From NCBI GenBank assembly GCA_008632985.1, contig QPGO01000165.1:62001-126000 (forward strand): DNA of 64,000 nucleotides. The letters are read 5' to 3'. Within the stretch, counting starts at the first letter, position 1; each line of letters opens with the position of its first letter. The notes beneath the pieces were generated by a model that saw only the letters and a list, made by a program, of their open reading frames with translations, did not search any database and was not told the DNA's origin. A program made the translations under genes and the position numbers. Below, piece by piece: positions 1 to 40,128 of the stretch. The stretch comes from Psammoneis japonica. Its lineage: Eukaryota.

Positions 1-3000
1 TGTTCTCAGCACATTTGGCGAGGACATCCTTGGCGTCGGCATCTGCAACTTGTTTGGTAGAGAACGTGATCGGAGACTCAGGAATGTCAAGACATTCAAC
101 AAATTTGAAGCCCGTTCGCGGCTTGTCGGAGCCAATTTCACCTTGCTCCTTGTCAGCAGATGCCACACCACCCAAGAGAGCACGTTCCATGTCCTTTTCT
201 GTCTCTGGAATGAAGGAATGGAAAATGGGCTCCTTGCCGTTGTTTTTGTCTCCTTCGTAGAATGAGCGCTCATCACAGCATCTGTCCGTCATGAAAACGA
301 TCGGGCCTTTAAAACCGTGCATTTGGTGCCGTCGGTTAAGGCCACACAGGCTGTCCTCCACTTCCAACAGGGTTGTCCCTGTGACAAGTCAGAACAGCAA
401 TGTCTGTCCAAACTCATTCATTGCCGAGCACAGACCAACGAAACCTCTTGCATTCTCAATCAGAACGACCTTTCCAATTTTGATAAAATGGTCCCCGGAC
501 AGGAACAGACCACCATTCATTTTCATTTTGTGGCGACAGCAAGGAATGTTGGATTCAATTTCTGATGTTGTTGCTTCCAACAGACAGGCCAGGGATGGCA
601 CTTGCATTTCCGCACGCTCGTCATCAAAGTCAAAATGTGAAGTTCGATTTTCGATGCGACTCTCTTTCCCAACCGAATTGCAAGCAAAATCAACATGTCC
701 TCGCCACATCTTTGCCTTCATGGCATGTGTTTGCTTGTGTCTCTTGGTCAGTGACTTCACAAACCCAAGCCCACTCATGCCGTGCGATGGCTCGGATCTC
801 ATCTTGTCAATGAGCGTCCATTTGATGGCGCCTTTAGATGCAATTTTGTGTCCATTTTGCCGCCACCAACCTTGAACATGCTTGGGTGATTGTGACAATG
901 CTGCAGAGTCACAGCCATAGAATGTGCAGCTCTCCCTGTCATGTGTGCCGTGATTCTCCTTCTGCATTTGCGTGCACATGTGCCGATGCCCGACAAGAGC
1001 TTCATTTTGATGCTCCCCGTGTGCACGCCTGGCACAATCTGAATGTCCAAGATGACTGACACATTCAGTTTCCCCAGGATGAAAAGGGCAGCAGGGCCTG
1101 CATTCTGGCCAACAAAGTGACCGCCAACAATCCTCTGGCCCAAAAAAATGACAGGCGGCACTGCAAACTCCTCGCGACAGAGCGGCGTGCCATGCTCTTC
1201 TTCCGCATTTTCATGCCCTGAACCAAAAGGAAAGTTGTTCACTGGATCAGAAGACAAATTGACCATTGAAGAGCCAAACATTTGAGGCCAGCTTCCACAT
1301 GGCTCGTGCTTGCCGTTCGGCTTGAACCCAACACACTTCTTGAGATGCTCCGACAACTTGTCGCATGCTTTTGAGGTGCATGAAGTGAAAGAGCCCTTCA
1401 AAGTGCCATCTTCCACAAGGTCATTCTTGTCTTGACGTGAAGCCTTTGATGCTCTGTTGGAAGTGCGAGTTTCTGCTGCCCTCTTTCCACGACGACTCCC
1501 AGCAGCAGCTGCAGTGTTAACCGTGCGATTCTTCTCCTGCTCGGCTGTTTTCTTTGCCGCATTCATCATTCTTGCCACTGCATTTTCTGCCAACCGTTTG
1601 TTCCTTCTCATGGCTTCATTTCTTGCAGAACATGGGTCAACCACTGTGGGATTAGAGCCTTGATTCATGATGCATGCGGCACACTACAAGCATGCGTTTG
1701 ATGTTGTCGCGTTAAAAAAAAAGCCGACACATCAAAAGTTCAGAATGTGGATGGAAAACAAATTCATTTGTGCATTCATTGCCTGCATTTGTCCAACGAC
1801 ATTCAAGCGCAAACTGACAGCAATTCTAATTCACTGTTGACATTTCTGTGTTGCTCTGAATTTGAAATCACACCCCTGTTCATTTGGCTTTTTTTGCGTC
1901 AAAGTGGAAATGACACTTGACGATTTACACCATTCATTTGGCTCACTTTGGCTCGAAGTTGAACAATGCTTTTGGGTCATGGGCTTGTCATTGTTCAGCC
2001 ACGATCATGAAGTCTTTGCCGATTTTTCGAATTTTTGCCGAACTGCATGCAGGAAGTCCGCGATCTTTTTTCTGTGCCGATTTTCCGCCACGTGTCACTC
2101 CCATCAACAAAGGCACCTGTGACAAGGTGATGCTCCAGACTTTGCTGACCTTGTGCAGAGTCAGTCACAGTTCTTCAACCCACAAGCATTGGTGGAGTGA
2201 GTGCCTGCAGTGTCCCCAAGCACGACACACACACATGGCTTTCTCGCAAAAAAGAAACCAGCTCAACGTGGGCCCGCCGCTGCGCGCCACTCTTGCCACC
2301 CTGCTGCAATGGCAAGCCCACATCAGCCATGGGACAGACTCACCTGTGCATTTGTGGGGGGAGAGGGGTGGAGCTGAGCCGACATGCACTGCTCCTCTCT
2401 TTTTGTTCTGCCAGATGTGAGCTTGGGCAAGACTCCTTGCCAAGCACACGCCCTTTGCCTCCAAGAGGCTGCATGGCACAACAGCACTTGCACTCTAATG
2501 GGAAGCAAGCACTGCTTTTTTGTGTGTGTGTGAGAGAGAGAGAGTTCATGGGGCCTCCTGGCGCGTGAGCTGGGGGGGCAAAGGCGGACATTCCTGAGAG
2601 ACAATGGGGGTTTTGAGCTGGGGACACAATTTCCATGTGACATGCGAGTGTGCACAAAATGCCATGCATTCATTGCAGCTCTTTGATTGGGGAGAGGACA
2701 AAGCTTCTTCTTTGTGGTTCGGAGCACTCTCTGTCTCTCCCTCTCTCTCTCCTTTTTCCAGAAACAGAGGCTTTTGCACATTTCCAGCAAAAGGGTGGGC
2801 CGCGCCACTTTCCTTTTTTAATTAACTCACAGGTCTCAAACAGGGAATCAATTGATCACCTGTTGTGTGTTGCAAGCTCAAAAAGAGGGGATGGGCGGAA
2901 CAGACATGCATGCATGTGGGGGGTGCTCACACAATGCAGGTGGGCGATGCATGCACCGCATTTGCTGTTCGGAACTTTCGTCTTTAGGTTGTCGTGCTTT

Positions 3001-3059
3001 CTTGAAATTTCTGTCTCACGGGTTCGCGCTCACGCGCCGCGTCGCGTTCTGCGTTGTGC

Positions 3060-3148
3060 TGTGAGCGGCATTCGCGCGGACTTTTGGGGTGGAACGCACA
3101 ACCACAAAAAATCTGCAGAAAAAGCAAAAACATCCTGTCTTGCTGAGC
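3060..3148 (+). repeat. Left TIR (TA-mutated copy)
   Basis: tgtgagcggcattcgcgcggac...; matches the reverse complement of the right TIR, with TA->TG/CA changes at the tip. Confidence 0.85.
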
Positions 3149-3240
3149 CTCCGCCCGACAGCGACGCCATGATGAAAACTCCACTCTGTGACCCATTCAT
3201 CTTGTTGCAGTTCCTGATTGGACCTCTTTCATTGTTCAAC

Positions 3241-5829
3241 ATGGGAGGGAAAAACTTGTCACCTTGCTTGAGACCTTCAAAAGAGTTCGCACACAGTCTC
3301 AAGAAGCTGCGAGAAAGCTTCTCCGAATCGCAGGCTGCAAATCCTGTTGCTGCAGTCGATGCATCCACGCGGGAAGTCAAGGCACTGAAAACAACAGATG
3401 CTGTTAACGAGTTTCACATGGAGCCTCCTGTTCCAGTTGAGAAGGTTCGTGAGTGCGTCATCGCCCTCATCCAAGCCTTCCTTGCAGCAAAGTTTCAGTT
3501 GATGTTTGCATTTGATGGCAACCGGCATCCAATGAAGGCAAACGAAAGAGCACGGAGACAGAAAAAACTCAATGAAGCCCAGGCAGATTTAGATGGGGTG
3601 CACAAAGGGGAGCTTGTGTTGGCGTGGAAAGAGATCCACAAGCTTTGGAAAGAACTGACGCATCCACGGGAGGACGCACATCACGTTGTGCTTCAAGTTG
3701 CCGAAGAGCACAAGATCCCAGTCGTCGGAGCCCCCTTTGAGGCAGATTAACAGCTGGTCTCCCTTGCAAGGCAAAAGGTTGTAGATTTTGTTGTCACAGA
3801 AGACAGTGACATCCCAACTTGTGGGGCGCTGTCTACGATTTCACGTTTGTCAAAAAATGGAAAGTGTTGTTTGGCGGACCTTCAGGAGACCTTGGAGCGC
3901 AGCCTTCCAAAGAAGTTGGGCATTCGTTCTCGCTCAACTTCAAGTGATCTCCAAGCAATGTCTTGCTTTGGAGGGAATGATTTCATTGACAGCAAGGATG
4001 GTGTCGGACCGAAGTCCGTTGAGAAGATGATGCGTGAATGGGTTAAACTCGATGACCTTGAGAAGCATGAGTTCCTTTGGGAGATCGCTGATGGTGACGA
4101 TGAATTCCATCACAGGTGGATGACGTCAATGACACTTCTGGGACATGGTCCAGCATCTCACATTGTCCCCGATGACAGTCAACGTGATCCACGTTCTGCT
4201 TTGCGGGAGCAAAAGCATTCTCTCAAACTTGCGTGTGTGAATTGCTCTGCTGTTGGTGCCAATTGTTGGGCATGGGGAAATGGCGACAAAGACTTGCCAT
4301 TCATCGGGTTTGACCCCAACGATCAGCTTCAGTCGGGATGGCACGAATCTGCACTTGCCAACAAAGATGCAGATGTCTTGTGCAAAGATCTTTTCATGAT
4401 GAAGAAATGGGCTCGTACGGGTTGCTCTGTGCGGGGCATCGAACGTAAAACAAATGATGAGGGATGCGAGCTGCTTCCTGGAAGCTGTGTCAATTTTCAA
4501 AAACTTCCTGCACACCTTGTTCCAACTGAAGCATTGATGTTTTGGCTCGCAGTGCGTGGAATAAAGAAGTCATGTGATGGCAGAAAAGATGTGGTGAAGG
4601 AGGTGCAGAAGGTGCTCTCGAGGCGGCCAGCACCTCCGCCGCTCCCTGCAATGCTGATGTGAGGTGGTGGAGGACATGTTGCATTCAAAGTTCTTGCTCC
4701 AAAGCGTGGTGCTGATGCCAGTTCTGTGCAATGGGAGACAGGCGATGATGCACTGAAGACCATTTGCAGCTGGATGGTTCCTCAGATTGATGACGCATGC
4801 CATTTGTCTGAGTTCGGCAAATGCAATTCCTCACGCATCCGAGCTCTGAACCATCTGAAAGGCGGCTCCTTGAATTTGTTGTCACTGAAGTGCACTCGAG
4901 AGCTTGGAGATAACCTTGGTCAAGAGAAGGAACTCCTTGTGATCCATGCGGTTTGCGCACCATCCGTTAAAACTTCGAAGAGCCAAAATCTCATGCACGC
5001 AGTCCGCCTTGTCATCACACTGGATGAGAAAAACAGAACTTCGAAATTGCTTCCATTTCCATGCAGCAATTGTGGCTGCCCCAATGGAGCGGGACCATGT
5101 GCCCACAGGGGCTGCTTCACACTCCTGCTGCATGTCATTCAAACCAAGTCGGCAGAGTGGGATTGTGACAAGATTAAGGACATGCTCCCAAGCCCGATTA
5201 AGTCAGTCCAAGATCTCCTGATTCCTGTCTCTTTTGCATGCCCAAGGAGAGCCAGTGTTGGTGCCGAGGTGGATCGCTCCGAGCGTGCCGAGCTGAAAAA
5301 CTACAAGGCAGAGAAGCGTCATGCAAGCGGCGAGAATCCACCAGAATCAGAAGAAGACGAGCTTGCAGTTCCAGTCAACAATTTTGACATGTCCACGAGT
5401 GATGCGGAAAGCAACGATGAAGGTCAAGAAGAATCAAAAGAGGAAGATGTGGAGGAGGAAGATTGGAAAAATGATGCACCACATGATGCACTCCCTGGCA
5501 GCGCACCAGATGCATCTTTGAAGCCACCAATTAAGGTTTGCGATGAAGTCGACATGTGGCCAGCAGAGCTTCAGCTTCATTTTGACAAAACCGGCTGTTC
5601 CACTCGACACAAAGAAAATCAAATCGTGGATGAAGCATCGAAACGAGCAAGACAAAATGATGACGAAGCATTTGAGAAACGTCAGCTGTTGCGTTTGCAA
5701 CGATTCCATGGCATCGTTAAGAAGGGTGAGTTTTGACCGAGCATGTTGAGTCTCTTCTGTAAGCTGCAGCTCCCTGAGATCGAGGCGAAACTTGAAGAGT
5801 TGGAAAATGCAGATGCTGGCAGTTTGTGA
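3241..5829 (+). pseudogene. XPG/FEN1/Exo1-family nuclease fused to SAP-like and SWIM zinc-finger domains (TE accessory ORF; stops and frameshifts)
   Basis: XPG-type motifs: MGGKNL start, AVDAS, FAFDG, APFEAD*QL and H3TH-like GGNDF..DGVGPKS. SAP-like LMFWLAVRGI..K (~4530-4620). SWIM-like CGCPNGAGPCAH (~5070-5106). Confidence 0.8.
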
Positions 5830-5903
5830 AAACGCAAATGACCAGAGCGGAGAGGCGAAAAACACGAGAAGAAGACAAAAAAATAGCAGCACTGTTCCAA
5901 CAT

Positions 5904-6690
5904 TTATTTGGACTTGAAGTCAAACTTAAAGCAGTCGCAGTGCTTTGCAGGCACCTGGAGAGGACGACACAGATTTGCGCGGCCATGACCCCATGCAACG
6001 AGGTCTTCAAAGCATGCAAACTTTTCATGCTTGATCAATCCGTACAGCATCCTGCGGGTTGTCACACGTGAGCACACAGTTTCACATGTGTGTCATAGCT
6101 GACATGCCTTTGCATTCCATTGAATCTGTTTGGGACTGAATTGAACACATCCACAGAGGAATGCAGGGGTCAACATTGTGTTGTGGTTCGGGCAGCTTCC
6201 TGAGGTCCCTGCAAATCCCTTGTCAGCCAAGATGAGCGTCTCAATTGGTGTGTTTCCTAGATGGTGTCTACCCCACAGTTCGACAAGGGCCTTCTCACTC
6301 CCTTTTGCTAAGAGTGGGCAGGTGCACTCAAAAACCAGCCCCATCGGTGTGCTCCATGTGATGACTCGAAATGCGGAGTGCTCAACCTTAGAGCTGCACC
6401 CTGCAGAGCTTGCAACCTTGTCCTTCCCATCTGTTTTGGTGGTAAAATCCTTGCCGTCAGCCACTGCAGCCACATTCTTGAGCCCCAGTCGTTTGTGCGA
6501 TGCTGGTTCTGTCTCGGATGAGAACTCCTCGCGCGCGCGAGCTCTTGGAACGCCTTCGTGAGCTCGGTGCACTCTTTTGAGCCGCAGATGCAGTTATACT
6601 GTTGCTTCTTTTTCCCAGGAGTAAATGGGAATCGTATGGAATACGATGGAAACGACATGGTGCCGTGACGGCATCTCTCGTTGCCGACAT
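5904..6690 (-). pseudogene. Harbinger/ISL2EU-type DDE transposase, internally deleted
   Basis: DGKDF...SSKVEHSAFRVITWSTPMGLVFE...SEKALV...ILADKGF...CQL*HTCETV.SRV...ANL.RPL. An N-terminal Cys segment (YNCICGSKEC) is joined directly to the DDE core at ~6530, implying a deletion. Confidence 0.75.
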
Positions 6691-6716
6691 GAGGGCGTCA
6701 TGGTTAGCGCAACGGA

Positions 6717-6805
6717 GCTCAGCAAAACAGATGTTTTTGCTTTGGCTGCAGATTTTCTTGCGGTTGCGCGTTCCACCCCAAAAGTCCGCGCGAATACCGC
6801 TTATA
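6717..6805 (-). repeat. Right TIR (unmutated copy), ending 41 bp upstream of the MRS2 ATG
   Basis: ...ccccaaaagtccgcgcgaataccgcttata retains its TA dinucleotides. Confidence 0.85.
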
Positions 6806-6846
6806 TTATTTTTTTGTTCTCATTCATTCTCAATTCGTTCTCGACC

Positions 6847-8430
6847 ATGGCGCTCCGACAAAGCGCCCGCCTCGGAACTAGGTTTCACAGTCGTCTATTA
6901 GCTACTTCCTTAGATTCATTGAGTCTCCCATACAGAGATTCAAGGAAAACACGAGAGAATCGGAAGAACTATCTGTTTTCCAGTAGCGACGGCACCTTTC
7001 GTACTTTTGCCTCGTTCGCCTTTCCTCGAAACGGTGCGAAACAAAACTCCAAAGAGAAGAAAAATGAGGATCCTTACAAGAACGAAATGTCTTGGTTTAA
7101 TGTTTCCAAAGTGACGGTCGACGGCGACGTCTCGTTCATGTGTTCTCGGGCTTCGGAACTTTTGCGTGAGGCTGGGTCGTCGATTTATGCACGTGACTTG
7201 TACTCGTTGGCATTGACGACGCGGCGACAAGACGGATTTTCTTCTTCGCGTGGCTCGTTTCGTCGCCGCCCTTTGTTTGCAATATTACCTCGAGGAAGTG
7301 AAATTCTAATCAGTTTTGGATACATTCGCGCAGTCATTGGAACAGAATCCGCCATGCTGTTTGATGCACAACACCACACGGTCAAGCAGTTTGTAACGGA
7401 CATTGCGCAAACGGTCGTTTCAACGCACAAGGAAGACGATGTCTCGGCAGTTGGATTGGATCTTTCAGAGGATTTTTCAGAGGAAGAAAAGCCCCCCTTT
7501 GAGCTGGTCTTTATTGAAGAAGTTCTTCGTGGGACCTGCGATGCGTACAACCGCCGGATACATCTCTATCAACCGATTGTCGATAGCATGCTGAATCGAG
7601 TTTCGAACGAGGTGTTCTCCGATGCAGGAGTTCATCAGCTTGTCCCAGTCAAAGATTCACTACAAAAGTTTGAAATGCAAGTCAAGCAGGGGTTGGACTG
7701 TTTGAGAGATTTGCTAGAAAGTGACGAAGACATGCTCAAGCTGCTGCTCCAAGAACAACAGGTGGCAAAGGAGAGGGGAGAGACTGTCAGACATGAACGC
7801 CATCAAGGAGTGGAGCTCATGTTGGAAGATTACCTAAGGCAACTCAGCAACATTCTATTTGAAATCCAGTATCTTTTGCAGCGACTACAGAGCAAGCAGG
7901 AGTTTGTCTCGCTTGCTCTGGATGGATATCGAAATCGGCTCATTCGGATGAATGCCTATCTGGGAATTTTCGGTCTCGGTATTGGCGTCGGCACAACCGT
8001 TGCGGGTTTCTTTGGAATGAACGTGATTTCTGGCTACGAACAGTCCACTACCGCTTTTAACAGTGTTGTCATGGGAACGAGCATTGTAGCTGTTGTCATC
8101 TTGATGGTTTGCTCTAATTACATTAGTGGAACAGGAATGAAGCAGCGTGCTGCGGAGCGGCTTGACAAGCTTGACACGATTAGTTCTGCACTGAGTGACA
8201 TGAGTGCTCTTGATTACGTGGTTAAGGAAATGATGGAACAACAGTCAGGTCTCACGAAGGAGGAATTTCGAGAGAAGCTTCAGGCGGTACGGTCTAGACC
8301 AGTGACGGACAAGGAGGTTGAACTGTTGTTTCATTCACTCGACGTCAGCGGGGATGGAGTCTTGTTCTCCGAAGACTTACAACCTTTCAAAAAGTTAATC
8401 AAGAGTCAGAGAGATGAGGCGGGATTTTGA
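6847..8430 (+). CDS. MRS2: MRS2/CorA-family magnesium transporter, probably mitochondrial, with C-terminal EF-hand-like loop
   Basis: Intact ORF with normal Tyr/TA content. MRS2 motifs: ARDL, PFELVFIE, VELMLEDY, LDGYRNRLI, and a GMN signature (FFGMNV) between two hydrophobic helices. Arg/Ser/Leu-rich N-terminus from ATG 6847; DVSGDGVLFSEDL near the C-terminus. Confidence 0.92.
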   Translation: MALRQSARLGTRFHSRLLATSLDSLSLPYRDSRKTRENRKNYLFSSSDGTFRTFASFAFPRNGAKQNSKEKKNEDPYKNEMSWFNVSKVTVDGDVSFMCSRASELLREAGSSIYARDLYSLALTTRRQDGFSSSRGSFRRRPLFAILPRGSEILISFGYIRAVIGTESAMLFDAQHHTVKQFVTDIAQTVVSTHKEDDVSAVGLDLSEDFSEEEKPPFELVFIEEVLRGTCDAYNRRIHLYQPIVDSMLNRVSNEVFSDAGVHQLVPVKDSLQKFEMQVKQGLDCLRDLLESDEDMLKLLLQEQQVAKERGETVRHERHQGVELMLEDYLRQLSNILFEIQYLLQRLQSKQEFVSLALDGYRNRLIRMNAYLGIFGLGIGVGTTVAGFFGMNVISGYEQSTTAFNSVVMGTSIVAVVILMVCSNYISGTGMKQRAAERLDKLDTISSALSDMSALDYVVKEMMEQQSGLTKEEFREKLQAVRSRPVTDKEVELLFHSLDVSGDGVLFSEDLQPFKKLIKSQRDEAGF

Positions 8431-8690
8431 TGTAGCTGCTGACCCTGTTTCGTCAAGCCGAGAAACTAATCCGTGACAAATTTCGGCGGAAAATGTTATT
8501 ATGCTATCTACCACCGAATACCGTACGGGGTGGGAATTTTCGTGTTCTGAATACATTGTTGATTTTTCAAGCTGCTTCCTAACTTGATTCTGGGCGAAAG
8601 CTCCACGGACAGTCAACGGGCATGGTCAAACATTTACAGTGCTCGGCGGTAAATTTTAATTGTCACCATTAGAAGGTTTAATACTCCGAG

Positions 8691-8975
8691 TAGTTTTTTC
8701 TTCAGAGTTGCAAGAATGCAGTGTAGAGTGAAATGGTCACTTACCCGTAGAAACGAACATTTGAACTTTTGGAAAGGAAACGACTCATAAGCTTCAACAG
8801 TTCGGCAAGGAGTGAAGTACAAAAAGGGGGTTAATAGTTTTTCAGCAGAGTTTCGAGAATGCAGTAGAGTGAAATGATCACTTACCCGTAGGAACGAACA
8901 TTTGAACTTTTGGAAAGGAAACTATTCATAAGCTTCAACAGTTCGGCAAGGAGTGAAGTGCAAAAAGGGGGGTTA
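8691..8975 (+). repeat. Tandem duplication, 2 x ~143 bp
   Basis: Two near-identical copies of ...gagtgaaatg.tcacttacccgtag.aacgaacatttgaacttttggaaaggaaa...gcttcaacagttcggcaaggagtgaagt.caaaaaggggg. Confidence 0.9.
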
Positions 8976-9639
8976 TTCCGCTCGCCCGCTGAGCTACAGG
9001 CTGCTTGGTTGGATGCGAACCAACGACTTGATCCTTCGATGGAGATATTGAATTGAATTTCAAATTGCTGTTTGTATGATTGTGATAATACTTCTAGCTA
9101 CTAGAGGCAGATTGGGAGAAGACTCCAGCCAGCTGTTGGCTGAAAAAAGTCTGCTCGTCAGTGCGTTTGGGGGTTTTGCCAGTAGAATTTTTCCGTTGAG
9201 ATTCTCTGTTTAAAAATTGTCAGTAGACGTAAAAAATGGCGTGAGTCAGCATGAGCCCGCCAGTTCATTTTCTCAAGACTAAGATTGTTCTCTACGTCAT
9301 GCTTAAGGATAAAATTTTACACACCATATTCAGCATGATGAAATTTAATTTACTCCATAGTAAAGAAATTTTGTCATCCAATGCTGCATGCTTTCTGTAC
9401 AGTAAAATGAGCGAGGAAAAATCATCATGTCTGAACTTGGTCCAGAACGTTATTTTTTCCGTTGAAATTCTCTATTTAAAAATTTTAAATAGACAAAAAA
9501 TGGCGGGATTTTGGCGGAGTGAACAGACCCAAACCCGTTCGCGCGCCTCATGTTTTTAGTAGACCATATAAAATGCATGTGTTGCTGGAGAAGTGATTCT
9601 CATTTCTATTATTGTCATTATCCTTCAGCCACTTTCATC

Positions 9640-10950
9640 ATGGCTCACCGTCGCTACAATGATGCCGCCAAGCAAGACGACTCGACGTTGGCCTTTGATT
9701 TGTTGGCGCATGCAAATAGCAGCCAAATGTCCGATGTCTTTCTCGTGTCGAGCGACGGGGATCAAGTTCCCGCGTCGCGCTTTGTGCTAGGGGCTCGATC
9801 GCCCGTGTTGCAGCAGCTCCTGTGTTCGAATCCGAAAATCAAACTGCCCTACAGCGGCTGTGTGGTGCGCGCCATGGTGGAATTCTGTGGAACCAACGAC
9901 ATTGTCGATTTTGTGCGTACAGCGACCCGCGATATGGATTCAGTACGGGAAGTAGTGCACTTGTACGATTGCGCACGTGCCTATTCGCTTAGAAAACTGC
10001 AAGAATTGGCCTGTGACATGGTCACAATGGTCCTTTGGGATGAGGGTAGCAACACGAAGCTTTGTTGGGCGTGTGCCATTTTGGATGAGGTTGTAGCGAA
10101 CGGCAAAGACGAAACCATGACTATGCGGCGCCTCGTATTGGATGCCATTCGATCGGATCCAGAATGTGCCTTGCTGCGTCAGACACAAGATTTTCAACCC
10201 CCGGGTGTATTGTGCCTGGACTCGACATCGCTAGAGCTCGTTGTGTCGGACAAGCTCATGAATTGCGAGGAAGTCACCTTGTTTAAAGCGATTCAAAGCT
10301 GGTCCAACCGTTCCCAGTCTTCGACTGGCCATCGATATGCTCCGAAAGACAAGAAGCGACAAGCCTCTGCCAAAGCTTTAATGGCAACGGCTATTGACTT
10401 GTCTCGTATCGCGCCGTCGGACCTTTGTGGGCTTGTAACTCAATCCGGCCTAGTCCCTCAAGCGGCAATCTGGGACGCACTCAAGGAAACAGCCCTTCGG
10501 ACGGAGCGCAATCAAGAAGTTCCCACCTCAAGGTTCCGCAACGACGACGCACCAGCAACGCGGGTCCTTCTGCTGGCGCACGAATCCAAACGACTTGAGG
10601 AAGAACTTACAGGAAAAGCATACAGCACACCTCAAAGACGCCCCCACAAGGGATCTAAACCAAGTCCTAGGGACGTTTTCAATCCGTTCGACGATTCCTC
10701 CATTGTGGCAACCGAAGTCACGCCTTCGCCTAGACGCCGCCGTCGCCACTCCAGCAAATCGCCAAAAACATCGACTGAAGAGGCGCCGAAGACGGATGAT
10801 GCCTTAATCGTTGAGGATGGCTCGCGCAGCAAGTCGGATAGCGCTGCTCAAGAATCGCCCGAAAAAGTAAAGGGCAAGCTCATCACCTTGGCGGAGCAAC
10901 TCGACGCCCTTTGTGTGTGTGGATCGGAGCCACACAGGATCGACCAGTGA
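9640..10950 (+). CDS. BTB/POZ + BACK domain protein
   Basis: BTB-like SDVFLVSSDGDQVPASRFVLGARSPVLQQLL, BACK-like EEVTLFKAIQSW and IDLSRIAPSDL, then a low-complexity tail. Intact, normal TA content. The start at 9640 is inferred. Confidence 0.85.
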   Translation: MAHRRYNDAAKQDDSTLAFDLLAHANSSQMSDVFLVSSDGDQVPASRFVLGARSPVLQQLLCSNPKIKLPYSGCVVRAMVEFCGTNDIVDFVRTATRDMDSVREVVHLYDCARAYSLRKLQELACDMVTMVLWDEGSNTKLCWACAILDEVVANGKDETMTMRRLVLDAIRSDPECALLRQTQDFQPPGVLCLDSTSLELVVSDKLMNCEEVTLFKAIQSWSNRSQSSTGHRYAPKDKKRQASAKALMATAIDLSRIAPSDLCGLVTQSGLVPQAAIWDALKETALRTERNQEVPTSRFRNDDAPATRVLLLAHESKRLEEELTGKAYSTPQRRPHKGSKPSPRDVFNPFDDSSIVATEVTPSPRRRRRHSSKSPKTSTEEAPKTDDALIVEDGSRSKSDSAAQESPEKVKGKLITLAEQLDALCVCGSEPHRIDQ

Positions 10951-11070
10951 AGACGCGCGAGTTCTACTTGTCGTTGGGCAGAGTGACTGTCGGTCTGGAT
11001 TTTCTTTGGTTTACAGTTCTTCTTGCACCGCATGTGCCAAGTCACTAACTTCTCGTGAGACGGTTGGGGT

Positions 11071-11094
11071 TCTCTCTCTCTCTCTCTCTCTCTC
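11071..11094. repeat. (TC)12 microsatellite
   Basis: Seen directly in the sequence. Confidence 0.9.
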
Positions 11095-14000
11095 GAGACA
11101 ATCATGCCGTACATCAACATAGATCTATTCATTTGTGTGTCTCCTTTTTACATGCGTTCAACACTCGCTGTTGTGCCACATTCAATGCTGGTTTAACAAT
11201 CTTGTGTAGAATTGGTCTCAGTGCAAACGCGGTCAAGCCCCATGTCTTTCCATTACGGCTCAGAAACAGGGTCCCACAGTGCTTGCCTCCCAATCGCTTT
11301 AGTGGCGAGAGATGAGGCAAGAGTGAATTTAGTGAAATGTGAGGCGATGCCACTCGACTGACAACCATCGTGGCTCGTCGTGGACGGTGCAGGCACAAGA
11401 CACAGTGCAGAACAATGCACCGGTTGCAACTGTGGTGCAACAAAGTGGCAGTTTGGTGATCACAGGAGGGACTCTCACATCATCATCGACAGAAGAACAA
11501 GATGACATCATGAGCAACGACGAAAGAAAAAGCGACACAATGAAAAAATGAACGACAGAGACAAGATTGTGGTGGAGAACTGCTGCAAGAACACGTTCAG
11601 ACAGTGCAAGTTTCTGAATGGCAAGGCACCAAATGACAGCAATGGAAGAGTGGCAGCAGACACAGTGCTGTCCAAGCTCAACGTGCCAAAGAAAAAGAGC
11701 ATGAGTTTGGGACATGTCAAAGGACAAGGCACAAAGGCAGATGACAAAAAAGAGGAACAGCACAAGTGGGGAAGTGAAGAAAGGCTTTTTTCAGCAAGTG
11801 GTGGAAGGAAACAGGGTGACATGGAGGTGGTGACACAATGGACTTCTGGCACACATTGCCTCATGTGTCGTGAATGCACAGGGACCTGGGTCATGAGAAG
11901 AAGAACCCGAAAGCAGAAGAAAGACAAAATGCATTTTCTGAAAGAAGTGCAAGAGGGCAGGGATTGCATGATGGCCCAGACCTGTTTCACCATCCACTTC
12001 CTGCTGAGCCACGTGGAAGCATTGACTCAAACCAAGACATTGCTTGAACAAGTTGGCATTGGAGAGTGATGAGGCTTTTGGGCTGCACATGCGCAGCAAG
12101 ACGAGAGAAGAGTTGAAGCTGGCCAAAAATGAGGGGCTCATTCCAAAGGTGAAACACAGCAATGGGAAGGGCTCAACAGCAAAAAGGAGTCACAGGTGGG
12201 ACAAATGCTGGCTTGCAAGGTGCAGGGAGTTGGGAAAACAGATGCAGGAGCAGAGACTGAGCAAGAACACAGAGGCATGCAATGAAGTTTGGTCTGAGGA
12301 GTTCTGGGAATGTGCAGACAGCAAGGAAGACAACGAAGAAGGAGAGGGCGATCAGATGCAGATGGAGGAAGATGGCAAGGAAGAAATCAAAAACCTGGAA
12401 TTGTGGTGCGTGGACACACTGCAATGGACAGCTGTTTCATTTGACATTTGGCGACAATTCAAGTGGAAACAGAAAAAACAGAAATGACCACAGACAGACC
12501 AGGGAGAGGGGGGGGGGAGCACAGCATTTCAGAGTGGCGCCAGCTTCGCAGAAATGAATTTTTTGCACCAGCGCAGAACTGCATGCATTTTTTCAGTGCT
12601 GCGCAGATTTCCTGACACATCAACTCCTGTCACGACACAGATGCAACAACAAAGCATCTGTCGTGCTGCTGTTCATGAAATGGAGAAGCCTCCACAAGTT
12701 GAAATGTTTGGCTGTGTTTGAGATCAAGGTCAGTGCAAACACAATGTGTTGAGTGGGATGTGGGCATGTGCGCCATTTCAGCCATCTCAAAAGGATTCTA
12801 AAAGCACTCTGCTCTGTTTCTTCTTCTTGTCACTTGGCATCACTGGCAACCAACCACCACGATGCTCTGTCCATTTCACATCTCAGTGGCTTTGATGAAG
12901 TTTTCACAATTTGCTGTTTCAGCAAGTGTGCTTCAACATGGCAAGATGAGAGAAGCAAGTGCATCAGACTTTGGCTGACTGCTTTCTCATGCTCTGCAAA
13001 TCAAGAACATGGTCGATGACCTCAACAGGAGAAAGCATTCTCTCTCATTTTTGGGTGCTGCAAATGACAGCTGCCAGTGCACACAAGGAGGATGAGTGTT
13101 TGTTGGCTGAGTGCACCACACAAACGGGAGTCTGCACTCTGCTGCAAAATGTTTGTCTGGTGGTGGACAAGCTCACATTTAGAGCAAATGGAAAATGCCA
13201 CACACACAAAAAAACATTCTTTAGAATTCCCTTTGATGTCACAACAGTTCAATCTCAGAGACAGAATGGAGTGCGCATGATGGTCAAAAGCAGCTCAGCA
13301 GCAAGATTTTTTCAGAACAGCCTCAATTTTTGAGTGCTGAGATCTGCCAGGTGAGTCAATTTTACAAAGAGAGCTGCTGCTTTTTAGACACAAAACAGCA
13401 CCACAACTCATGGGCAATTGATGGGCAGCAGAAGAGTTTAAAAACAGTCAGTTGAAAGGCATGAGACAGTCATTGTCAATCCAGTGGAGTTCACAAAGGA
13501 TTGTCATTTTCTTCAAGGAGTGTTCTTGACATGACGTCAAGTGCTGGAAAGTGCCTTGTGTTGCACACAGAAAACAGAACACCAGCTTGAAGCTGCTGCT
13601 TTGTGGTCAAAATGAGCTTGCCAATTGGAGCACATCTAAGAAATGGTCACTCAAACCAGTGAAGTGAAGGGTTGTGGAAGGTGCTCCAAATGCCACAGCA
13701 GTTTTGATGTTGTGACGACATCTTGAAACTTGCCGCTCTTTCTCATTGAACAGCAGGATTCCACAAGTTGTTGTTTCAAGTGTGGACACAAGGAATTTGA
13801 AAAACATTTGAGGTTGACTGAGCTCCAGAACAATTGTTCAGATTTTGGTCACACAAGTTGAAGCCAATGCCACTCGAGCATGGAACTGAAATGCCATGGA
13901 AGGAACAAACAACGGATCTGCAAACAGACGGGAAAAGAAAAATGAGTTGTCAATGCAATGGCAAAAATCAGGGCCAAGTCATTGTCCCACATTTAAATGA

Positions 14001-31330: not shown

Positions 31331-33277
31331 AAGGAGAACCCGGGTTTTGCCATTGCTCCTGACTCAGAGGTTGCTGTGTTCAAGTGATTCAAAAACACAG
31401 CAGTGGGTCCAGCTCAGAAGCGCTTGTGAAGTCCTCTGCAACCAACTGTTGTCAGCAGAGCAAATGAAGAAAGAGTCAAGAAAAAGAAAACCCAGTGCCA
31501 AAGCAGTGGTGGCTGAAAGCACAGCTGCTGACTGTGACAAAAAGAGTTGAGATTTGTGTGTGGCAGATATGCAGATGATCTGCTGCCTCCATCAAAAGAA
31601 AAGCTTGCTCCAATGTTGTTTTTGCAGGTGAGCCAATGTGGCATGACACTGCACATCCTGAGAGGCAATGCAAGATGCACCCAGCAAAGTGGACAAAAGA
31701 GAGTTTGTCCCCACTGTGCTTCTTGAGGTGGAGCACAGCAGCTGACTCACACCCCAGGCAAAAAAAAATTGACTGGGTCACTTGCTTTCCTGCCAGTCTT
31801 CTTTTAACCAAGCAGCTCCTGATTTTCACAAAGTGAGGAGCAAATGAGATGCCCAATCTGGACAAGTCCGTGCCTCCCCCACTTTAACTCTTTGTTCACC
31901 ATGGTGACACATGCATGCTTTTTTTTCTGTGCCACACAATGCACACTCAGTGGGAATCATTCAAAAATGTTGCAAGAAACACAATTGACATTTGCACAAG
32001 GAAAAATGTCAAATCGTGCAGAAATGCACACAGTGTCATGCTGGAGAGTGATTGGAGCTGCTGGCTTTGCGGGAACTCAATTGAAATGTCGCTGTGTCTG
32101 ATCAAAGGCATTTTGATTTACATGGTGAAGAGCAACACCTTTGATCAGATGACATTTCAATTGATTTCCCGAGGAGTTGACATTCATGCACAGACAGGCA
32201 GGTGGACTGACAACAATTGTTTCTGGTGCTTTTCTGCACAATTTTTTCTGTGCAATGACTCTGAGAGCCGAGTGACTCATGTTGCAACAAAAAGACAACC
32301 AACGTGGCACGTCACCACTCAGAGTCATTGTGATCAACAGCACCCTGATGCCATGTGGAGTGATTGCCAACATGGTGAGGTGTGCCATGATGGCTTGGAT
32401 TGGTTTGTTGTCATGTTGCTGTCCTGTCTTCACTTTTTGACTTGCCGGCTGTTGCATCGGCATTTTTTGCACTGTGACATGCCTGACCGACCAGCACCAA
32501 CAGAATCGGTGTTGTCATTTTTGTCATCTGCAGGACAGAGTCTGGTGGAATGTCAAACAAATGGGTGAGCACACATCACAACAGCACTGTTCTGTTGCAT
32601 CAGATTGTCCTTTTTTGCACCTCACATTCCCTCAGCTGACCCTTGCTTTTTGTGCTGCTGTTTTTTGCTTTTCAGCATGAAGCTGCGGTCATTTGTGGCG
32701 CGGGCATGATGGACATGGACGTTGGCAAGCACATCTCTGTGCTCACCTTCAGCTCCCTTGACACCACTGTGGAGGATGTTGGTGTGGAGTGCTGGGTGGC
32801 TCCTGCAGCCGCCAGCGTGCCTGCAGTGCTGTCAAAAATTTGTGGCTGTTTCACCCGTTGCTTCTTGCACTGGTCAGATCAAAGAAAATGAGACAAGGTC
32901 GCTTGCACCCACACTCAAGAGATGAGCCCTTTGCCAATCATCTGCTGAAAACTGTTTTCTCTCTTGTTCATTTGTGCAAGCTCACAGGAACCAGGCAACA
33001 ATCCTTTTGCTGCATCGCAATCATCTCAGGGTGCCTTGACAAGGAAGTTGCAGCAAGAGAGATGTCTGGCCAGGTGGGTGAGGCTTTCCCAGCCAACAAG
33101 AACAAAAGTGTCTGGCAAAACAAGACTGTCAATGCAACTCAAGGATGCTGCTGTCAACGCATCTAAATCACATGTTGAGTGCAACAAAGTGCAACAACCA
33201 CTGGTTTCACTGGTGATGTGCTTTTGTCTGTCATGCATCATGCATGCACGGCTGCTCTCTTCTCCAGCTTGGATTGA

Positions 33278-34650
33278 GACCCCGTCCAAACTGGATCGTA
33301 CTTGCGCACTTTCGTACTTGAGCATGGCCTAAAAAAGGCGCTTTGCGACTTTTTTAGTAAAAAAGGCGCTTTGCGACTTTTTTAGGGTTATGTGCCCTAT
33401 GATTCTACAATATTTAGGCCATACGATCTCGCGTCAGGAACAGAGACCACCGGCCCTGTCTGTTCCTTCGCGACATCATACTACGCGCAGAATAAACGGT
33501 TGTCAGAGGAATAAACAGTTGTCAGATGAAGCATGGACAGACCGTAAAGTAAGGGAACTTTCACGTAGATTCTACGAGACAAACGGGTGATAGACAGACA
33601 AATGCGACAGAAGAGTCGATTTCTGTCGTCCCCGTGCTGTGAGCCAAATGGTGTATCAGTTAAATTTATTACGTTTATATTGTTATGCATGTATGCCTCA
33701 AATTAGTGTGGATGTTGTTTTCATCCCCACATGGACGCCATTGTCGCTTCTCGTGTTGCGTCGCACTTTTGTGAGCATCTGTCGCATTTTTCGATTCAAC
33801 CTCATCTTTTTTTGAAATTTTACGAAATTGTTACATAATTATTTTACTATAAAAACGCTAGGAAAACTGGTGTCTGACACCTGTTTATTCCGTCCGTAGC
33901 ATACCCCTGACATCATACCCCCGCTCGCACGAAAAACAGCATCACGACGAATGAAGATGACGGCCCATAGCGGCATCAAAGTTTTACCTTATGATGATAA
34001 AAGTAACCCCATTAGAACCGCCATATTTTACTTAGTGTGTAGGTGTGGTTTCTTGTTTTGTTCAGTGAAATAACGTTAGACTTACGGGGTGATTTCAGAA
34101 ACTTTTCATTTGAAAGTTTCTGCACATTCTTCTCGGGCCATATCGACCCTTACTCTAAAGTCACACCACATACAAATAAACCCATTAAATCCTTCTTATC
34201 TAAATTAGTCGATAAGATTATTGTTGGGCCTAACAGATCTAGTTTAGCCACCTTATGCATTGACTTGGTATGATGCACAGACAGAAAAAATTCCTTTGAA
34301 TACAAAAGGTCTATTTCAGCAACAAGTGCACAATATTTTAACATTTTCTTGCCGTAACTTATCATATCCACTTCATATTATCGATTGGTGTTACTTATAA
34401 AGTGGTAAAATCGAAAGAAGCTGTCAAAAACAACCACACATCGCCATGGCGACTTGCATCGCATCCGCTCGTTACGCGCTTCAGTGATGTCAGAAATGAG
34501 TAACTCGACTAATTTTTTGGGTATGATAGTACCAATGTACGTAAGTACGATGCAGTTTGGACACGACTCCCTTTTATGGCTCGTGACGTCATGAAGCAGG
34601 CCATACTCAAGTACGATAGTGCGCAAGTACGATCCAGTTTGGACGGGGTC
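33278..34650. mobile_element. Young non-autonomous TIR DNA transposon (PIF/Harbinger-like), 1373 bp, 53-bp TIRs, 3-bp TSD TGA
   Basis: gaccccgtccaaactggatcgtacttgcgcact.tcgtacttgag.atggcct at both ends (2 mismatches). tga flanks both sides (33275-77, 34651-53). AT-rich interior with normal TA; no transposase ORF. Confidence 0.92.
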
Positions 34651-37400
34651 TGAATGGGAATGGTCTCATTTTGGAAGGCAGTGCCATGTCTGCTGCCATT
34701 CCCTCCAGCTTGCACTGCAAAAAATTCAGTGAGTGACAAATGACGATGATGCAACAGACAACAACACAACTCACTTTGATGCCAAAACAAAGCTTGGCAG
34801 CCTGGCTGCTGGCTGCATCTTTTTTGCCCCACACCCACAATCAAAGCCTCTCTCAAACACAGCGCCTGTTTCCAAGTGTTCTTTCTGAACAATGAAGAGC
34901 GATTTGTTGTCATTGCACATCCTCGCACTTCCCACAGCATCAGTGCTGGTGTTTGAATCAAAGCAACAAGCAATGCTGCAGCATGGCGACACCATCAGCG
35001 GCGCTGTCAATGAACTCTGATGAACAAATGAGCACAAAAACAGAAAATGATGGGCGACCATGCAACACCAAGTCTTTTTTGCTGCTTGCCTCCCACCCAT
35101 GATTTGACACTGGAGTTTTTCAAAAACAGCACCCAACTCAAAATGCTCTTTCCAAATGAAGAGCAATGTTTCATCAGCGTGCATGCTCTGTGACAACGGC
35201 AAAGACAATGCTGCAGCGGCTCTTGGTGTCACCAACCTGTGGTGTGTCGTGGCAAAAAAAATGTTGTGTGCGTTCAACCGCACAAAAAAAATCCACTCCA
35301 ATCCATTCCAGCAAACAAAGAGTCAACCAGTGCATGGGCTCAAAGCGCTGGATCAGATGTTGTGTCATTTGTCATTTTCTTCATGCACTCCGTCCATCTC
35401 TGTGGCCATCGGTCGGGCACGGGCTCCCCAGTTCATTTTGCCTGGAGCAGATGGGTCATGAGCCACCACCCACACATCAGCGCCATGCAGGGGTGCACAC
35501 AACACACTTCCACACTGCACAGTGCAGAGTTGGTGCAGCGCGCATTGAAGGGAGACACCATGGCAGAAGGTGCCAAGTGGAGTGTCAACAAGTGTTGGCT
35601 CAAAGCAAGTGGAGTGTTGGCTCAAAGCAGTTCAATGTGTTTTCAGTTGATTTGTTGGATCACTTTTTCCAAATGCTGGGCCCCCGCTCATTTTGTTGGG
35701 GCAATTCCCCATTTCATTGAAAATCCCCCCCCCCCCCCCCCAAACCTTCAAACCTGCCCGCATTGGCATCGGCGCCAATGTGGTGTGTTGTGAAAAAAAT
35801 GTGCGCCCGCATGACCGCGCAAAAAAATCTGCAGTGATCCATTGTGGCAAACAAAGAATCAAGAAACAGTCAACTTCAAACCAGTGAAATGGTTTCCAAA
35901 GACAATGCAGAACAGCAGTGGACAGAATTGCATCACCAAATGTGACAAAGAGCAAGCATGGCATCAAGGTCAACTTGAGTGCCGACTTGGAACAAGCATG
36001 TGACACATGGCTTGCCTTTGGGTTCCAGGCTAATTGTGCGCACAACCCTGCAATGCAAATGTGCTATGTCAATGAGTGCTTCTTTGCACTGACAACAAAG
36101 GAGTTGTTTTGATCTCATTGTGTCCAACAACCTTGTCAACTGCCTTTCTCACATCCGCTTGACATGATGTTGCAGATCTTTTGATGCTTTGCATCTTTTT
36201 TCGATTTTTCATGCACAGGGCTCCCCCCGTCTCCATTCAGAATCATTGCCACAATTGTGACACCATGGCGGCCAAGAACAAATTCATCAAGAATGCACCA
36301 TCGCCCTGTCCATTTGCTGTCATCCTCTTTCTGGTGCTGTGCTTTTGTGACATTCCCATTTCTGACAGAGTCTTTGCCGTCACTCATCACCTGCATGTCG
36401 TCCGGCAAAACAAGCCAACAAACCCAACAGAGGACTGCAATTTGAGCCCAATGAGGAAAGGGGACGGCACCAAGGATTCTTTTGACATTTGCATTGGTTG
36501 TTGTGCTGCAGTGGGGGTGCTGTGACCTTTGGGTCTTCTCATGTGTGCGGCCTGTCTGCAACACACGCAACAAGATCACAACTCAGCTGCAGCTGAAAAG
36601 GCAGCTGCTGCCACTGCAGCTCCGCATCTCTTTTTGTTGCTGTCTCAGATCACAATGGAACATGTTGTTGGATGTTTAGATTGTCGTGGGTGCATTCAGT
36701 GCTTGGTGCCGATTGGCTTTGGTGTGTGCCGGCAAGTGGCTTTGCTGCGATGGACGACAGTGGCCCACAAACAGTTTTTGAAACATCGAAATGCAAAGGT
36801 GGTTCAACTCAGGTTGGTTCTGGCAGTCCTCAATGCCATCCTGTGGACCTGCAAAACATTTGTCTTTCTGCTGCTTTGCATGATGCCAAACTGCCTGGAC
36901 CAGAAAAAGCATCAGGTCCCTTCTGCAGAATGGAAGAGAGAACTGTTTCCTCTTGCAAAGCCAGACAAAACAGACTGGAGAAACATTGCCATCTCCATCC
37001 CATTCATTGCATTCAAGTGGGCCCTGTGTGAGGCTTGGATCTGAGGCAAGCTCTTTCTTGAGATGACACAATTCACCCTTGGAAACTCGAGCCAAAGGTT
37101 GTTGCATTTGTCATCAACTTGGTGCTTCAAAAGAAGAGCTCATTTCCAGACAATGGAGAAGGGTGGACTTGCTTTTCACAGTCTCTTTTCTTTGCTCTGG
37201 CACAAAATTGCAAGCCAAAGAGCATCGCCTCCAATTGACTGTCCTCACTTTGGGCAATTGTTGTTGTGCAGCACGGCACAAGTCCATCACGTCCGTCTGT
37301 TGAGTGCAACCAACACACATCATCATGGGGAGCCAAGATGTCGTTCACACAAAAACCCGAAAACATCCCACAGCTCAAAGAACACATTGAGAACACTGCA

Positions 37401-38890
37401 ATGTTGATGAACAAGAAAAGAGAAAGGATGGAACTTGTCAAAATCCAGGAGGTCAAAGGCTTTGGGAATGCTGTTGTTGCCCAGACAGCTTTGATTTCAG
37501 GCACTTTAGGGCTGGAAGTCTTTCAAGAACAGGCTTTGATTGTCTTCCCTCCTCACGACTGCACAGTCTCACCACTGTGGGGACGATCAAGCAGAGTGCT
37601 GCATGAGTGAAGCTGGCCAGACTGTTTGCACTTTTTGGAGAAACCCGAGGATGTCCCAGAAAAGGTTTTGTCCTTTTGTGTTGACATGAAATGCACTGAC
37701 GCTTGTCGAGCACAAGAGCTTGCATCTGAGTGCGTTGAATCTCAGGAATGTGCCAAGCACTTCACTCATCTTTTCATGGTGATCAAATTCAATGCTGTGG
37801 CCGTTCAACCAGTCAATGCTGACGGCGGTGGGCCCAGATGCTGCAAGGGGCATGGTCTCTTTGAAGTCGCATGTTGAATGGCACACTCATGTGGCCCCAA
37901 CTGTGTCTGGTTTAGTTTGCAAGATGGTTGCTCTAAGACAGTCCGAGTGATTGCACCCATCCAGTCTGGAGAGATGCTTGCTGTTAACTGCCTTGAGCAG
38001 AAGCACTTGGAAAAGCCCATGTTCCTCCATTGAGCCAAGCTGAAACGCACTGAGAACTTTGACTGCAGATGTGACAGATGCGTGTCATTGACTGGAGACG
38101 ACTCCCAGTGCTTGCGCTGTCACAACAAGCATTGCAAAGTGCACCATCTGGTGCAACAAGTTGACATTGGTGATCCTCCAGATCTGACTGCTTGTGGTGT
38201 GTGTGGTGAAACAGCACCTGATGCTTTTCAAAAATGGGTGCTGGAAAATGAAGAAGAGGTGAGCCAAAAGATTGATTGTGTGGATCGGGTTGCTGACTTG
38301 GGCATGCCCACAGACGCCGCACATTCCATCCAATCACTCAAGCCTCCATGTGAACATCATGGGGTCACTCTCCCAACACACCAAGCACAGGTTGATCTCT
38401 GCTTGAAACTCAATCAACTTTCAAAGGCTGTCATGGCACAATGCAAGTGGAGCAACTGTCGTTTGCGCATTCACGGAGAAAATTGTCTTGACGAACAAAC
38501 TGGATTTGGGCACAAATGCATGGGTGACTTGCTGGTTTGAGATGGAGACCAGCAGGCTGCCCGGAACGCATGTCAAAAAGCAGTGCAGGCCCTTCAAGTT
38601 TCTTGGGGAGGATCCAATGAGCCACACACGCAATGTGCCATGAAAATCAGTGCAAAAGCATCGCATCACGTCTTCGCCAACAGAATTGTCAGCAAAGTGC
38701 AGTCTCTGTGGCATCTGAGCAACAAAGAAGTGCAGTCGTTGCGGAAACACAGTGTGTTGCAACAGGGACCACCAGCTGGTTCATTGGAAGGTGCACAAGA
38801 AGTTCTGCACCAAGACATCTTGATCGATCAAGCCTCTCCTCCCCAATTTCCCAGGTTTTGCGACATTTCTTCATTCTTTCCCAAATCGTA
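37401..38890 (+). pseudogene. SMYD-type SET-domain lysine methyltransferase pseudogene
   Basis: EVKGFGNAVVA; HGLFEVAC*MAHSCGPNCVW (R.NHSC.PN); VRVIAPIQSGEMLAVNC (GEEL..Y); post-SET FDCRCDRC. Confidence 0.8.
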
Positions 38891-39299
38891 AAAATTGTGC
38901 AAACGTTGCACAGGAGATTCAATCACCAGCCAGTTTGGTCTCAGTGCTGTTTTCAAAGTCTTTCTGGCACATCCGTGCTCGCTCCAGGTCCTTGAGCTGC
39001 ACAGCATTCTCCACAGATTGATGACACCAAGAAAACTGAGCTTTTGTTGCGCTGTCGCGACATTGCGGCTTTGATTGCATCATTCCCGTGATGTGTTCAT
39101 GCATGCCAAAGATGTTCCCCATGGACTGTCACAAGAATGCTTCCGAATGACAAGTCTCTCCCGCTAAAGGAACGACCTGCAACACAGTTGCTTTGCCCAC
39201 AGTTGCCCAATTGCAAAGGATCTTTGTCTGCCTGGTGCAAAGTTGTCCCAGTCACAGTGCACGGTCTCCTGTGGGACCATCAGCATTCTTCCACTGTGA

Positions 39300-40001: not shown

Positions 40002-40128
40002 TGTGACAAAAACACATGCATCGGTCATGTCAAACCTGCGTGACCCTGCAAATGTGCATTTCTTAGAAGATCTGAAGACAGAGCAAGAGTGCCAAACCAG
40101 CACATGAAGACCAGTGCAGAGTCTACGA
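40002..40128 (+). repeat. Copia-1 5' LTR (3'-truncated by a deletion into gag)
   Basis: Matches 45346-45473. Confidence 0.85.

Follow-up and report, generated by a model that had tools for sequence, protein, structure and literature searches.

Near the left end of the 64-kb stretch of DNA analysed here (from contig QPGO01000165.1; hereafter the window) lies a 3746-bp transposable element, at positions 3060-6805, bounded by terminal inverted repeats (TIRs). Between its two arms are an open reading frame (ORF) for a 5' nuclease related to EXO1 and XPG and, on the opposite strand, the remnant of a transposase gene. DNA from which the dinucleotide TpA has nearly disappeared extends to the left, and to the right the ATG of an MRS2-type Mg2+ transporter gene follows 41 bp past the right arm. 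We describe here how the two arms differ at TA sites, how the TpA depletion stops inside the element, and what the comparison with other repeats of the window indicates about the direction and timing of the change.

Differences between the terminal arms

Read from its outer end at 3060, the left arm is TGTGAGCGGCATTCGCGCGG, and the reverse complement of the right arm, which ends at 6805, starts TATAAGCGGTATTCGCGCGG. BLAST connects the arms by an inverted repeat of 91 bp at 90% identity, which the repeat search returned as two blocks (3064-3111 with 6754-6801 at 92%, and 3108-3134 with 6730-6756 at 93%); the 26-nt core of the arms occurs at two places only within the window, where 100 shuffles gave an expectation of 0. 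In aligned columns 1-37 the arms differ only at columns 2, 4 and 10 (3061/6804, 3063/6802 and 3069/6796). These columns hold all three TA of the right arm, read as TG, TG and CA in the left arm, and by an arithmetic estimate the chance that three random substitutions would all be of the TA to TG/CA type is about 1e-3. The alignment bears out the initial annotation, which had noted three altered TA sites in the first ~37 bp and no other difference. The same annotation had called the right arm pristine, a description that goes beyond the data, by which the right arm is only less changed than the left.

Further inwards, columns 39 and 45 have CG in the right arm and CA in the left (3098 and 3104), and on this comparison the left arm appears to have lost two CpGs besides its TAs. 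The remaining differences are 1-nt indels at columns 49 and 76, adjacent transversions at columns 61-62 and a C/T difference at column 81. The whole left arm sits within a TA-free stretch (2986-3404).

TpA depletion along the element and in the window

The observed/expected ratio (o/e) of TpA is 0.08, 0.10, 0.11 and 0.17 in four consecutive segments of the element up to 6249 and then 0.47 in the last 556 bp (6250-6805). The flanks have the same polarity, with 0.07 on the left and 0.46 on the right, the side of the gene (binomial p=7.3e-5 for the gradient), and CpG o/e within the element follows the same trend (0.55-0.70 versus 0.87). The depleted domain thus ends within the element, somewhere around 6250-6500.

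Depletion of this kind dominates the window. TpA o/e is below 0.2 in 103 of its 128 500-bp bins, in many of them as low as 0.00-0.06, and these depleted bins together contain 211 TA versus 5681 CA and 5478 TG. They are also low in CpG (o/e 0.03-0.6), except for the bins of a Copia element described below and one or two others. Over the window TpA/ApT is 0.16 and (CpA+TpG)/(ApC+GpT) is 1.75, with a GC content of 0.44-0.59, and the highest TpA o/e reached by any bin is 0.80. A process that destroys TA is thus evident from the near-absence of TA in the repeats and the lack of any bin above that value, and one that makes TA is not. Islands of ordinary composition are found at 6501-11500 and 33001-35000, and the borders of the domains are sharp, the others being located at 11001/11501, 32501/33001 and 34501/35001.

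Tyrosine codons and other copies of the element

The conceptual translation of the nuclease ORF (P0001) contains 1 Tyr in 860 residues, versus 13-36 in each of 29 relatives. At the 8 alignment columns where at least 40% of the relatives have Tyr, P0001 has His four times, Phe four times and Tyr never, and the two best-conserved of them (86% and 90% Tyr) are both His. In leave-one-out controls with 12 relatives, Tyr was kept at 3-6 of 6-11 such columns and His appeared 0-2 times. Likewise, none of 18 Tyr aligned against the relative P0002 is kept in P0001, where four have become Cys and four His, and each of these two residues is twice as frequent in P0001 as in P0002. A change from TAY to CAY is a T to C change at TpA, so the loss of Tyr to His matches the direction TA to TG/CA. 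The transposase remnant reads L*HTCE (the asterisk marks a stop) where its relatives have LRYTCE.

Other copies of the element were compared through contigs of the read run X1, on which all read-contig comparisons of the element rest; runs X2 and X3 have no coverage of it, which carries no information on its absence. At 80% likeness or more, 163 X1 contigs match positions 2500-9000, other copies of the element included; 66 of the 163 are at least 99% alike, and the sequence is recovered in k-mer contigs whose word depths are 28-66. Comparison of the present copy with the other copies gave 448 difference rows (337 transitions and 110 transversions), of which 40 listed rows were compared site by site. 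Among these, other copies have TA where the present copy has CA/TG at 2 sites (3230 and 3234), the reverse holds at 4 sites, 6 sites are CA/TG doubles, another copy has CG where the present one has TG/CA at ~10 sites, and none of the 40 falls within the first 20 nt of either arm.

A Copia LTR pair and a TA-normal element as comparators

A Copia-type retrotransposon with long terminal repeats (LTRs) occupies 54540-61657 and has an RVT_2 domain with its YVDD motif intact. The LTRs of one element are identical at integration. Here, the two 278-bp LTRs (54540-54816 and 61380-61657) differ by 16 substitutions, all located at pyrimidine-purine (YpR) dinucleotides, that is, TA or CG. The 12 variable sites comprise 5 with TA versus TG/CA, 3 with CG versus TG/CA and 4 doubles with CA in one LTR and TG in the other, and no substitution is found in the ~212 remaining columns; 2 TA are still shared, versus 19 CG. 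In other words, 9 of the 11 TA-derived sites have changed in at least one LTR, versus none of the ~212 other columns. A double presupposes an ancestral TA (or CG) and an independent change in each LTR, the simplest history being one TA hit once on each strand; CG ancestors are a less likely source since CpG o/e of the Copia element is near 1 (0.75-1.15 in its 500-bp bins, in which TpA o/e is 0.05-0.51; TpA o/e of the flanks is 0.09 and 0.11). The confinement of the divergence to YpR implies that the process acts on integrated DNA, after integration. Judged from these counts, it would change TpA at least about a hundred times faster than the background, and faster than CpG decays.

The second comparator, located at 33273-34655, is an element of ~1.4 kb with 55-bp TIRs. 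Counted per 100 bp, most of its bins hold 6-12 TA and both flanks hold 0, the switch falling exactly at the TIR ends, 33273 and 34655. Two sites distinguish its arms, and one of these is CA in one arm and TA in the other. This element must be young or untargeted.

Identity of the element

One X1 contig (depth 15.6; shorter side 30 letters) joins position 3055 straight to 6810 with TTA between them, which supports the outer limits of the element and reveals an empty-site form in the reads. The TTA that follows the right arm, together with that of the empty site, fits a 3-bp TTA target-site duplication of the PIF/Harbinger kind, as far as the two junctions can be read; the left junction (3056-3059) is GTGC, in which no matching copy of the duplication is recognisable. 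Beyond the right TTA, the run of T has one base more than its counterpart in the empty-site contig.

The reading frame of the nuclease starts with an ATG at 3241 and is interrupted by TAA at 3748-3750 and TGA at 4660-4662. Its relatives at E<=1e-30 number 69 (HMMER, 1.8 billion representatives); those that align end to end have 870-880 residues and 34-37% identity, as exemplified by P0002 (37% over 96% of the query) and P0123 (34%). A profile of 27 relatives matches PDB structures of human Exonuclease 1 over profile positions 1-315 (E=1e-41), and the acidic residues of the nuclease as well as a CxCx6CxH motif are invariant or nearly so among the relatives. Codon 4660-4662 is CGA in another read copy and the corresponding residue of P0002 is Arg, so that the TGA stop arose by CpG decay. 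A variant genetic code, considered on account of the in-frame TAA and TGA, was dropped in view of this CGA and Arg and of neighbouring genes that read normally.

The transposase remnant is 41-43% identical to residues 150-339 of P0272, P0273 and P0274 (tblastn, E=5e-42 to 8e-36). It corresponds to the C-terminal ~190 residues of a ~340-residue transposase and is broken by an in-frame stop (6093-6095); the ~150 residues of the N-terminus are lacking and do not fit between 6530 and the TIR. The remnant itself has no Pfam match even at E<=10 and is identified solely via its relatives, which carry PF13613 or PF13359 (HTH_Tnp_4 / DDE_Tnp_4) and through which it can be assigned to the DDE_Tnp_4-type transposases typical of PIF/Harbinger. 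In another relative, P0196, a nuclease-type protein is fused to a DDE_Tnp_4-like stretch, and that stretch matches the remnant at E=8e-8. Three contigs of other copies match the present one only from 6538 rightwards and are unlike it to the left of 6538, an indication that the present copy has undergone an internal deletion. At 6247-6251 the match with contigs of another copy or allele is interrupted: it runs as far as 6247 and resumes at 6251, and the non-matching sequence past one point is the reverse complement of that past the other, a pattern that the nested insertion of a different TIR element would produce.

On these features, the element is best described as a single non-autonomous deletion derivative of a PIF/Harbinger-like DNA transposon. 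Its likeness to that group lies in the TIRs, the DDE_Tnp_4/HTH_Tnp_4 relatives, the TTA at the right junction and in the empty site, and the presence of two genes. The second gene of PIF/Harbinger elements is Myb/SANT-like and DNA-binding, whereas the second ORF here carries XPG_N/XPG_I, is EXO1-like and encodes no such protein but a nuclease with the CxCx6CxH finger; no paper pairing Harbinger-type elements with an XPG-like gene was found in the literature search. The nuclease of AcademX elements is of the XPG type. AcademX, a lineage of Academ transposons, is described as encoding a nuclease and producing target duplications of 3-4 bp (PMC10045372), a length with which the present element is compatible. 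The XPG-like nuclease prompted a provisional assignment to AcademX, which was not retained since the transposase relatives here are of the DDE_Tnp_4 type; the remnant is, besides, a separate gene on the opposite strand.

Surroundings of the element

Coordinates are collected in Table 1. Named homologues of the MRS2 gene are all from diatoms (Attheya, Ditylum, Odontella, Seminavis, Entomoneis, Epithemia, Cyclotella and Cylindrotheca), with a best identity of 57%, so that the source is probably, though not certainly, a diatom or a near relative; a comparison with an atlas had indicated Chlorophyta or diatoms. The island at 6501-11500 also holds a BTB gene. Downstream of the MRS2 gene, a 141-bp unit is present in tandem at 8695-8971 (2 copies, 91% alike), and at 7491-8977 several contigs skip 71-187 bp, which suggests length variants. 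At 12000-32500, 35000-54500 and elsewhere both strands are rich in ORFs of 250-340 codons that match nothing in Pfam; the long ORFs of the depleted domains are probably false, TAA and TAG being nearly absent there. Rfam gave 0 matches in the window, and a search of metagenome contigs for similar loci based on P0002 gave 103 pattern matches, 0 of them confirmed.

Table 1. Features in and around the element (window positions). TA and CG tallies of the arms span 92 alignment columns.
Feature	Positions	Strand	Basis
Whole TIR element, 3746 bp	3060..6805	+	Inverted repeats at both ends; X1 empty-site contig
Left TIR arm	3060..3150	+	Arm alignment; 0 TA, 5 CG
EXO1/XPG-like 5' nuclease ORF	3241..5736	+	Pfam XPG_I E=3.6e-10; relatives; profile match
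DDE_Tnp_4-type (PIF/Harbinger-type) transposase remnant	5955..6530	-	tblastn with P0272, P0273, P0274
Right TIR arm	6715..6805	-	Arm alignment; 3 TA (6804, 6802, 6796), 7 CG
TTA, probable right copy of 3-bp target-site duplication	6806..6808	.	TTA also in empty-site contig
TpA-depleted, partly CpG-depleted domain	1..6250	.	0-5 TA per 250 bp versus 11-22 expected
MRS2/CorA-type Mg2+ transporter gene with EF-hand	6846..8430	+	Pfam MRS2-like E=1.1e-23; normal TpA and CpG

Discussion

In this work, we consider it likely that a PIF/Harbinger-like copy was subjected, after its insertion, to a process converting TpA into TpG or CpA, and that its right end was spared beside the MRS2 gene. The direction of change, TA to TG/CA, which the initial annotation had deduced from the arms, is well supported by the sequence comparisons: the composition of the window, the loss of Tyr codons, the LTR pair and the lack of any TA-enriched stretch all agree with it, as do, on the whole, the differences from other copies in the reads. 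The claim that mutation depends on position stands in part. The gradient that matches both flanks speaks for it; the patchy Copia element and the TA-normal element at 33273-34655 caution against a simple rule.

Several observations weigh against the reading we favour. The Copia element is patchy in the midst of depleted DNA with no domain border near, and the element at 33273-34655 has kept a normal TA content inside fully depleted DNA, so that location in a depleted domain is not sufficient for mutation; the two together mean that place alone does not decide which sequence mutates and that history and patchiness matter as well. The arms of a TIR element, unlike LTRs, need not be identical at insertion. 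CA/TG doubles could in principle descend from CG ancestors. The TAA at 3748-3750 is TGG in another copy, and some TAs are thus derived. The GTGC of the left junction cannot have come from a target-site TTA through TA to TG/CA changes alone, an origin that was considered and dismissed. Finally, a degenerate pattern of the TIR had 0 matches in JGI metagenome contigs and 0 in IMG/VR.

The main rival to a positional reading accepts the direction of change and attributes the asymmetry of the arms to mutation that is patchy, or proceeds in tracts, by chance and without a chromatin cause, or else to selection on the MRS2 promoter for the TAs of the right end. We regard it as unlikely, though it has to be taken seriously: the uneven Copia bins between depleted flanks are what patchiness would produce, and a preprint on Bigelowiella natans reports that hypermutation struck only 11 of the 15 lines and left 2-45 mutations in each, which indicates an episodic process (10.64898/2026.01.13.699255). 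The short distance between the right TIR and the MRS2 ATG would suit promoter selection. Against it stands the polarity of the gradient, which fits both flanks, the depleted side facing depleted DNA and the normal side facing the gene, and the other borders of the window are equally sharp. It is improbable, in our view, that the arms were already unlike at insertion, either because the TIRs of the family are imperfect or because a mutated source copy was moved in trans, in which case the locus would be uninformative. Two stops in the nuclease ORF and a shortened transposase make the copy non-autonomous, the other copies differ from it at many YpR sites, and the empty-site form in the same read set means that the insertion may be fairly recent. 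Against this, a transposase would presumably recognise an arm less well once three of its outermost 10 nt had changed, and the match between the gradient and the flanks would be a coincidence. Moreover, the rate given for B. natans is ~6e-7 per site per generation (10.64898/2026.01.13.699255), and by simple arithmetic a TA would at that rate be hit within a few million generations, making saturation in place feasible even for a polymorphic insertion.

Pairwise differences alone cannot be oriented, and one may suppose the reverse, namely that the left arm is original and that the right arm gained its three TAs by C to T and G to A changes at CpA/TpG, whether through a process like repeat-induced point mutation (RIP) or through a GC to AT bias. 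Of the 5 CA/TG sites that the left arm has among its first 37 nt, 3 would on this view have changed, and at least one TA, that of the TAA at 3748, does look derived. It is nevertheless very improbable, given that the right arm has 19 other G/C among its first 37 nt, all unchanged, that conserved Tyr codons have been lost to His in the same element, and that RIP raises TpA, which is almost absent here, with 103 of 128 bins below 0.2 and none above 0.80. An artefact of reads or assembly, as when a base modified at TpA is miscalled G or C, we find hardly credible. Dense base modification of silenced repeats is plausible, and the X1 reads, whose platform is not on record, may be the very data behind the assembly of the window; yet the proportion of contigs at least 99% alike and their depths are unlike those of error-prone reads, TA, TG or CA are found at the same site in different copies, and the borders at 33273 and 34655 meet the ends of a transposable element to the base.

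Under the reading of a post-insertion process, the element would have inserted 41 bp upstream of the MRS2 gene, at the right-hand edge of an old block of silenced repeats. TpA in integrated mobile DNA would be converted to TpG or CpA, the A of TpA on either strand undergoing an A:T-to-G:C transition, at a pace far above that of ordinary mutation and also above that of the accompanying CpG-to-TpG/CpA decay. Between 3060 and ~6250 this would have removed ~90% of the TAs expected from composition, including all three of the left arm, and left the last ~550 bp, right arm included, at the TA level of the neighbouring gene. The border within the element may then mark the end of silenced chromatin that is kept in check by the adjoining active promoter. 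As to the chemistry, adenine would most likely be deaminated to inosine, which is read as G, by an ADAT2/TadA-like enzyme, as has been proposed for B. natans; oxidation of T at TpA by an enzyme of the TET/JBP type is a possible alternative with the same strand-symmetric outcome. The context of the natural tRNA substrate of TadA/ADAT, U33-A34, fits the T-A requirement of a putative deaminase. Among the surviving TAs of the depleted bins, 123 of 211 (58%) are YTAR (TTAA 50, TTAG 33, CTAA 24, CTAG 16), and NTAT and ATAN are nearly gone, which suggests a preference for TAY on the edited strand, or else that the surviving TAs are newly arisen.

It is tempting to speculate further that diatoms, and perhaps the wider SAR group (stramenopiles, alveolates and Rhizaria) including B. 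natans, possess a DNA-editing defence that deaminates A at TpA, preferably at TAY, across silenced domains and not by recognition of transposons. Such a defence would spread and stop at active promoters, so that an element could be left half edited, and TIR and LTR pairs would gauge its reach and rate. We offer this broader proposal tentatively, as an idea with somewhat less in its favour than against it.

If true, A:T-to-G:C hypermutation specific for TpA in mobile DNA would extend to a second major lineage, and at a far higher saturation, pointing to a widespread genome defence of marine algae that is RIP-like yet chemically opposite. The TIR and LTR pairs would place the change after integration and in DNA, and a border that can fall within an element bears on targeting by domain or chromatin rather than by sequence identity; such pairs could serve as internal clocks and rulers. 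For annotation, the erasure of TAA and TAG stops would leave long false ORFs in repeats and Tyr codons would become His or Cys codons, making transposons harder to recognise by similarity and misleading both the gene and the repeat annotation of such genomes.

Comparison with known systems

Deamination of 5-methylcytosine at CpG also yields TG and CA, and a likeness to it is seen here in the old repeats, with CpG o/e of 0.03-0.5, and in the two CG to CA differences of the left arm. It cannot remove TA, however, and the Copia element, in which CpG is 0.75-1.15 and TpA 0.05-0.51, separates the two processes. Fungal RIP resembles the process considered here in being a dinucleotide-specific transition hypermutation that ruins integrated repeats in DNA and can leak past the borders of the repeats. 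In contrast, RIP changes C to T mostly at CpA, which raises TpA and lowers GC, whereas in the window TpA is near absent and GC stays at 46-50%, and the two dinucleotide ratios of the window, 0.16 and 1.75, are the opposite of RIP index values.

In our searches, TpA hypermutation was found in print only as a 2026 preprint on B. natans, and the literature search, one preprint on diatom transposable elements included, found no report of TpA-depleted repeats in diatoms. In the B. natans preprint, mutation-accumulation lines yielded 231 mutations in two integrated viral regions, of which 230 were A to G or T to C, all on TpA (10.64898/2026.01.13.699255). Its authors (Mettrop et al., bioRxiv 2026) also describe long-term TpA depletion in coding sequences with DDE and reverse-transcriptase domains, and as the agent they propose an ADAT2-like enzyme that would deaminate adenine in DNA (10.64898/2026.01.13.699255).

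The two cases share the change of TpA to TpG/CpA in regions of foreign or mobile DNA and a footprint of TpA depletion with enrichment of CpA+TpG. In the window, changes on TpA account for 3 of 3 TAs of the TIR, for 5 single and 4 double sites of the LTR pair and for the replacement of Tyr by His, with a CpG process alongside, and the regional footprint consists of 103 of 128 bins below 0.2, 211 TA versus 11159 CA+TG, and sharp borders. The differences are also clear. B. natans is a chlorarachniophyte, whereas the MRS2 relatives here are all diatoms, and its changes were measured de novo, while ours are deduced from comparisons. Depletion is near saturation over ~80% of the 64-kb window, against a rho of 0.45 in the region of B. 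natans derived from nucleocytoplasmic large DNA viruses. Also unlike B. natans, CpG decays alongside TpA in the window, the targets are ordinary transposons of three kinds, and a border of the process falls within a single element.

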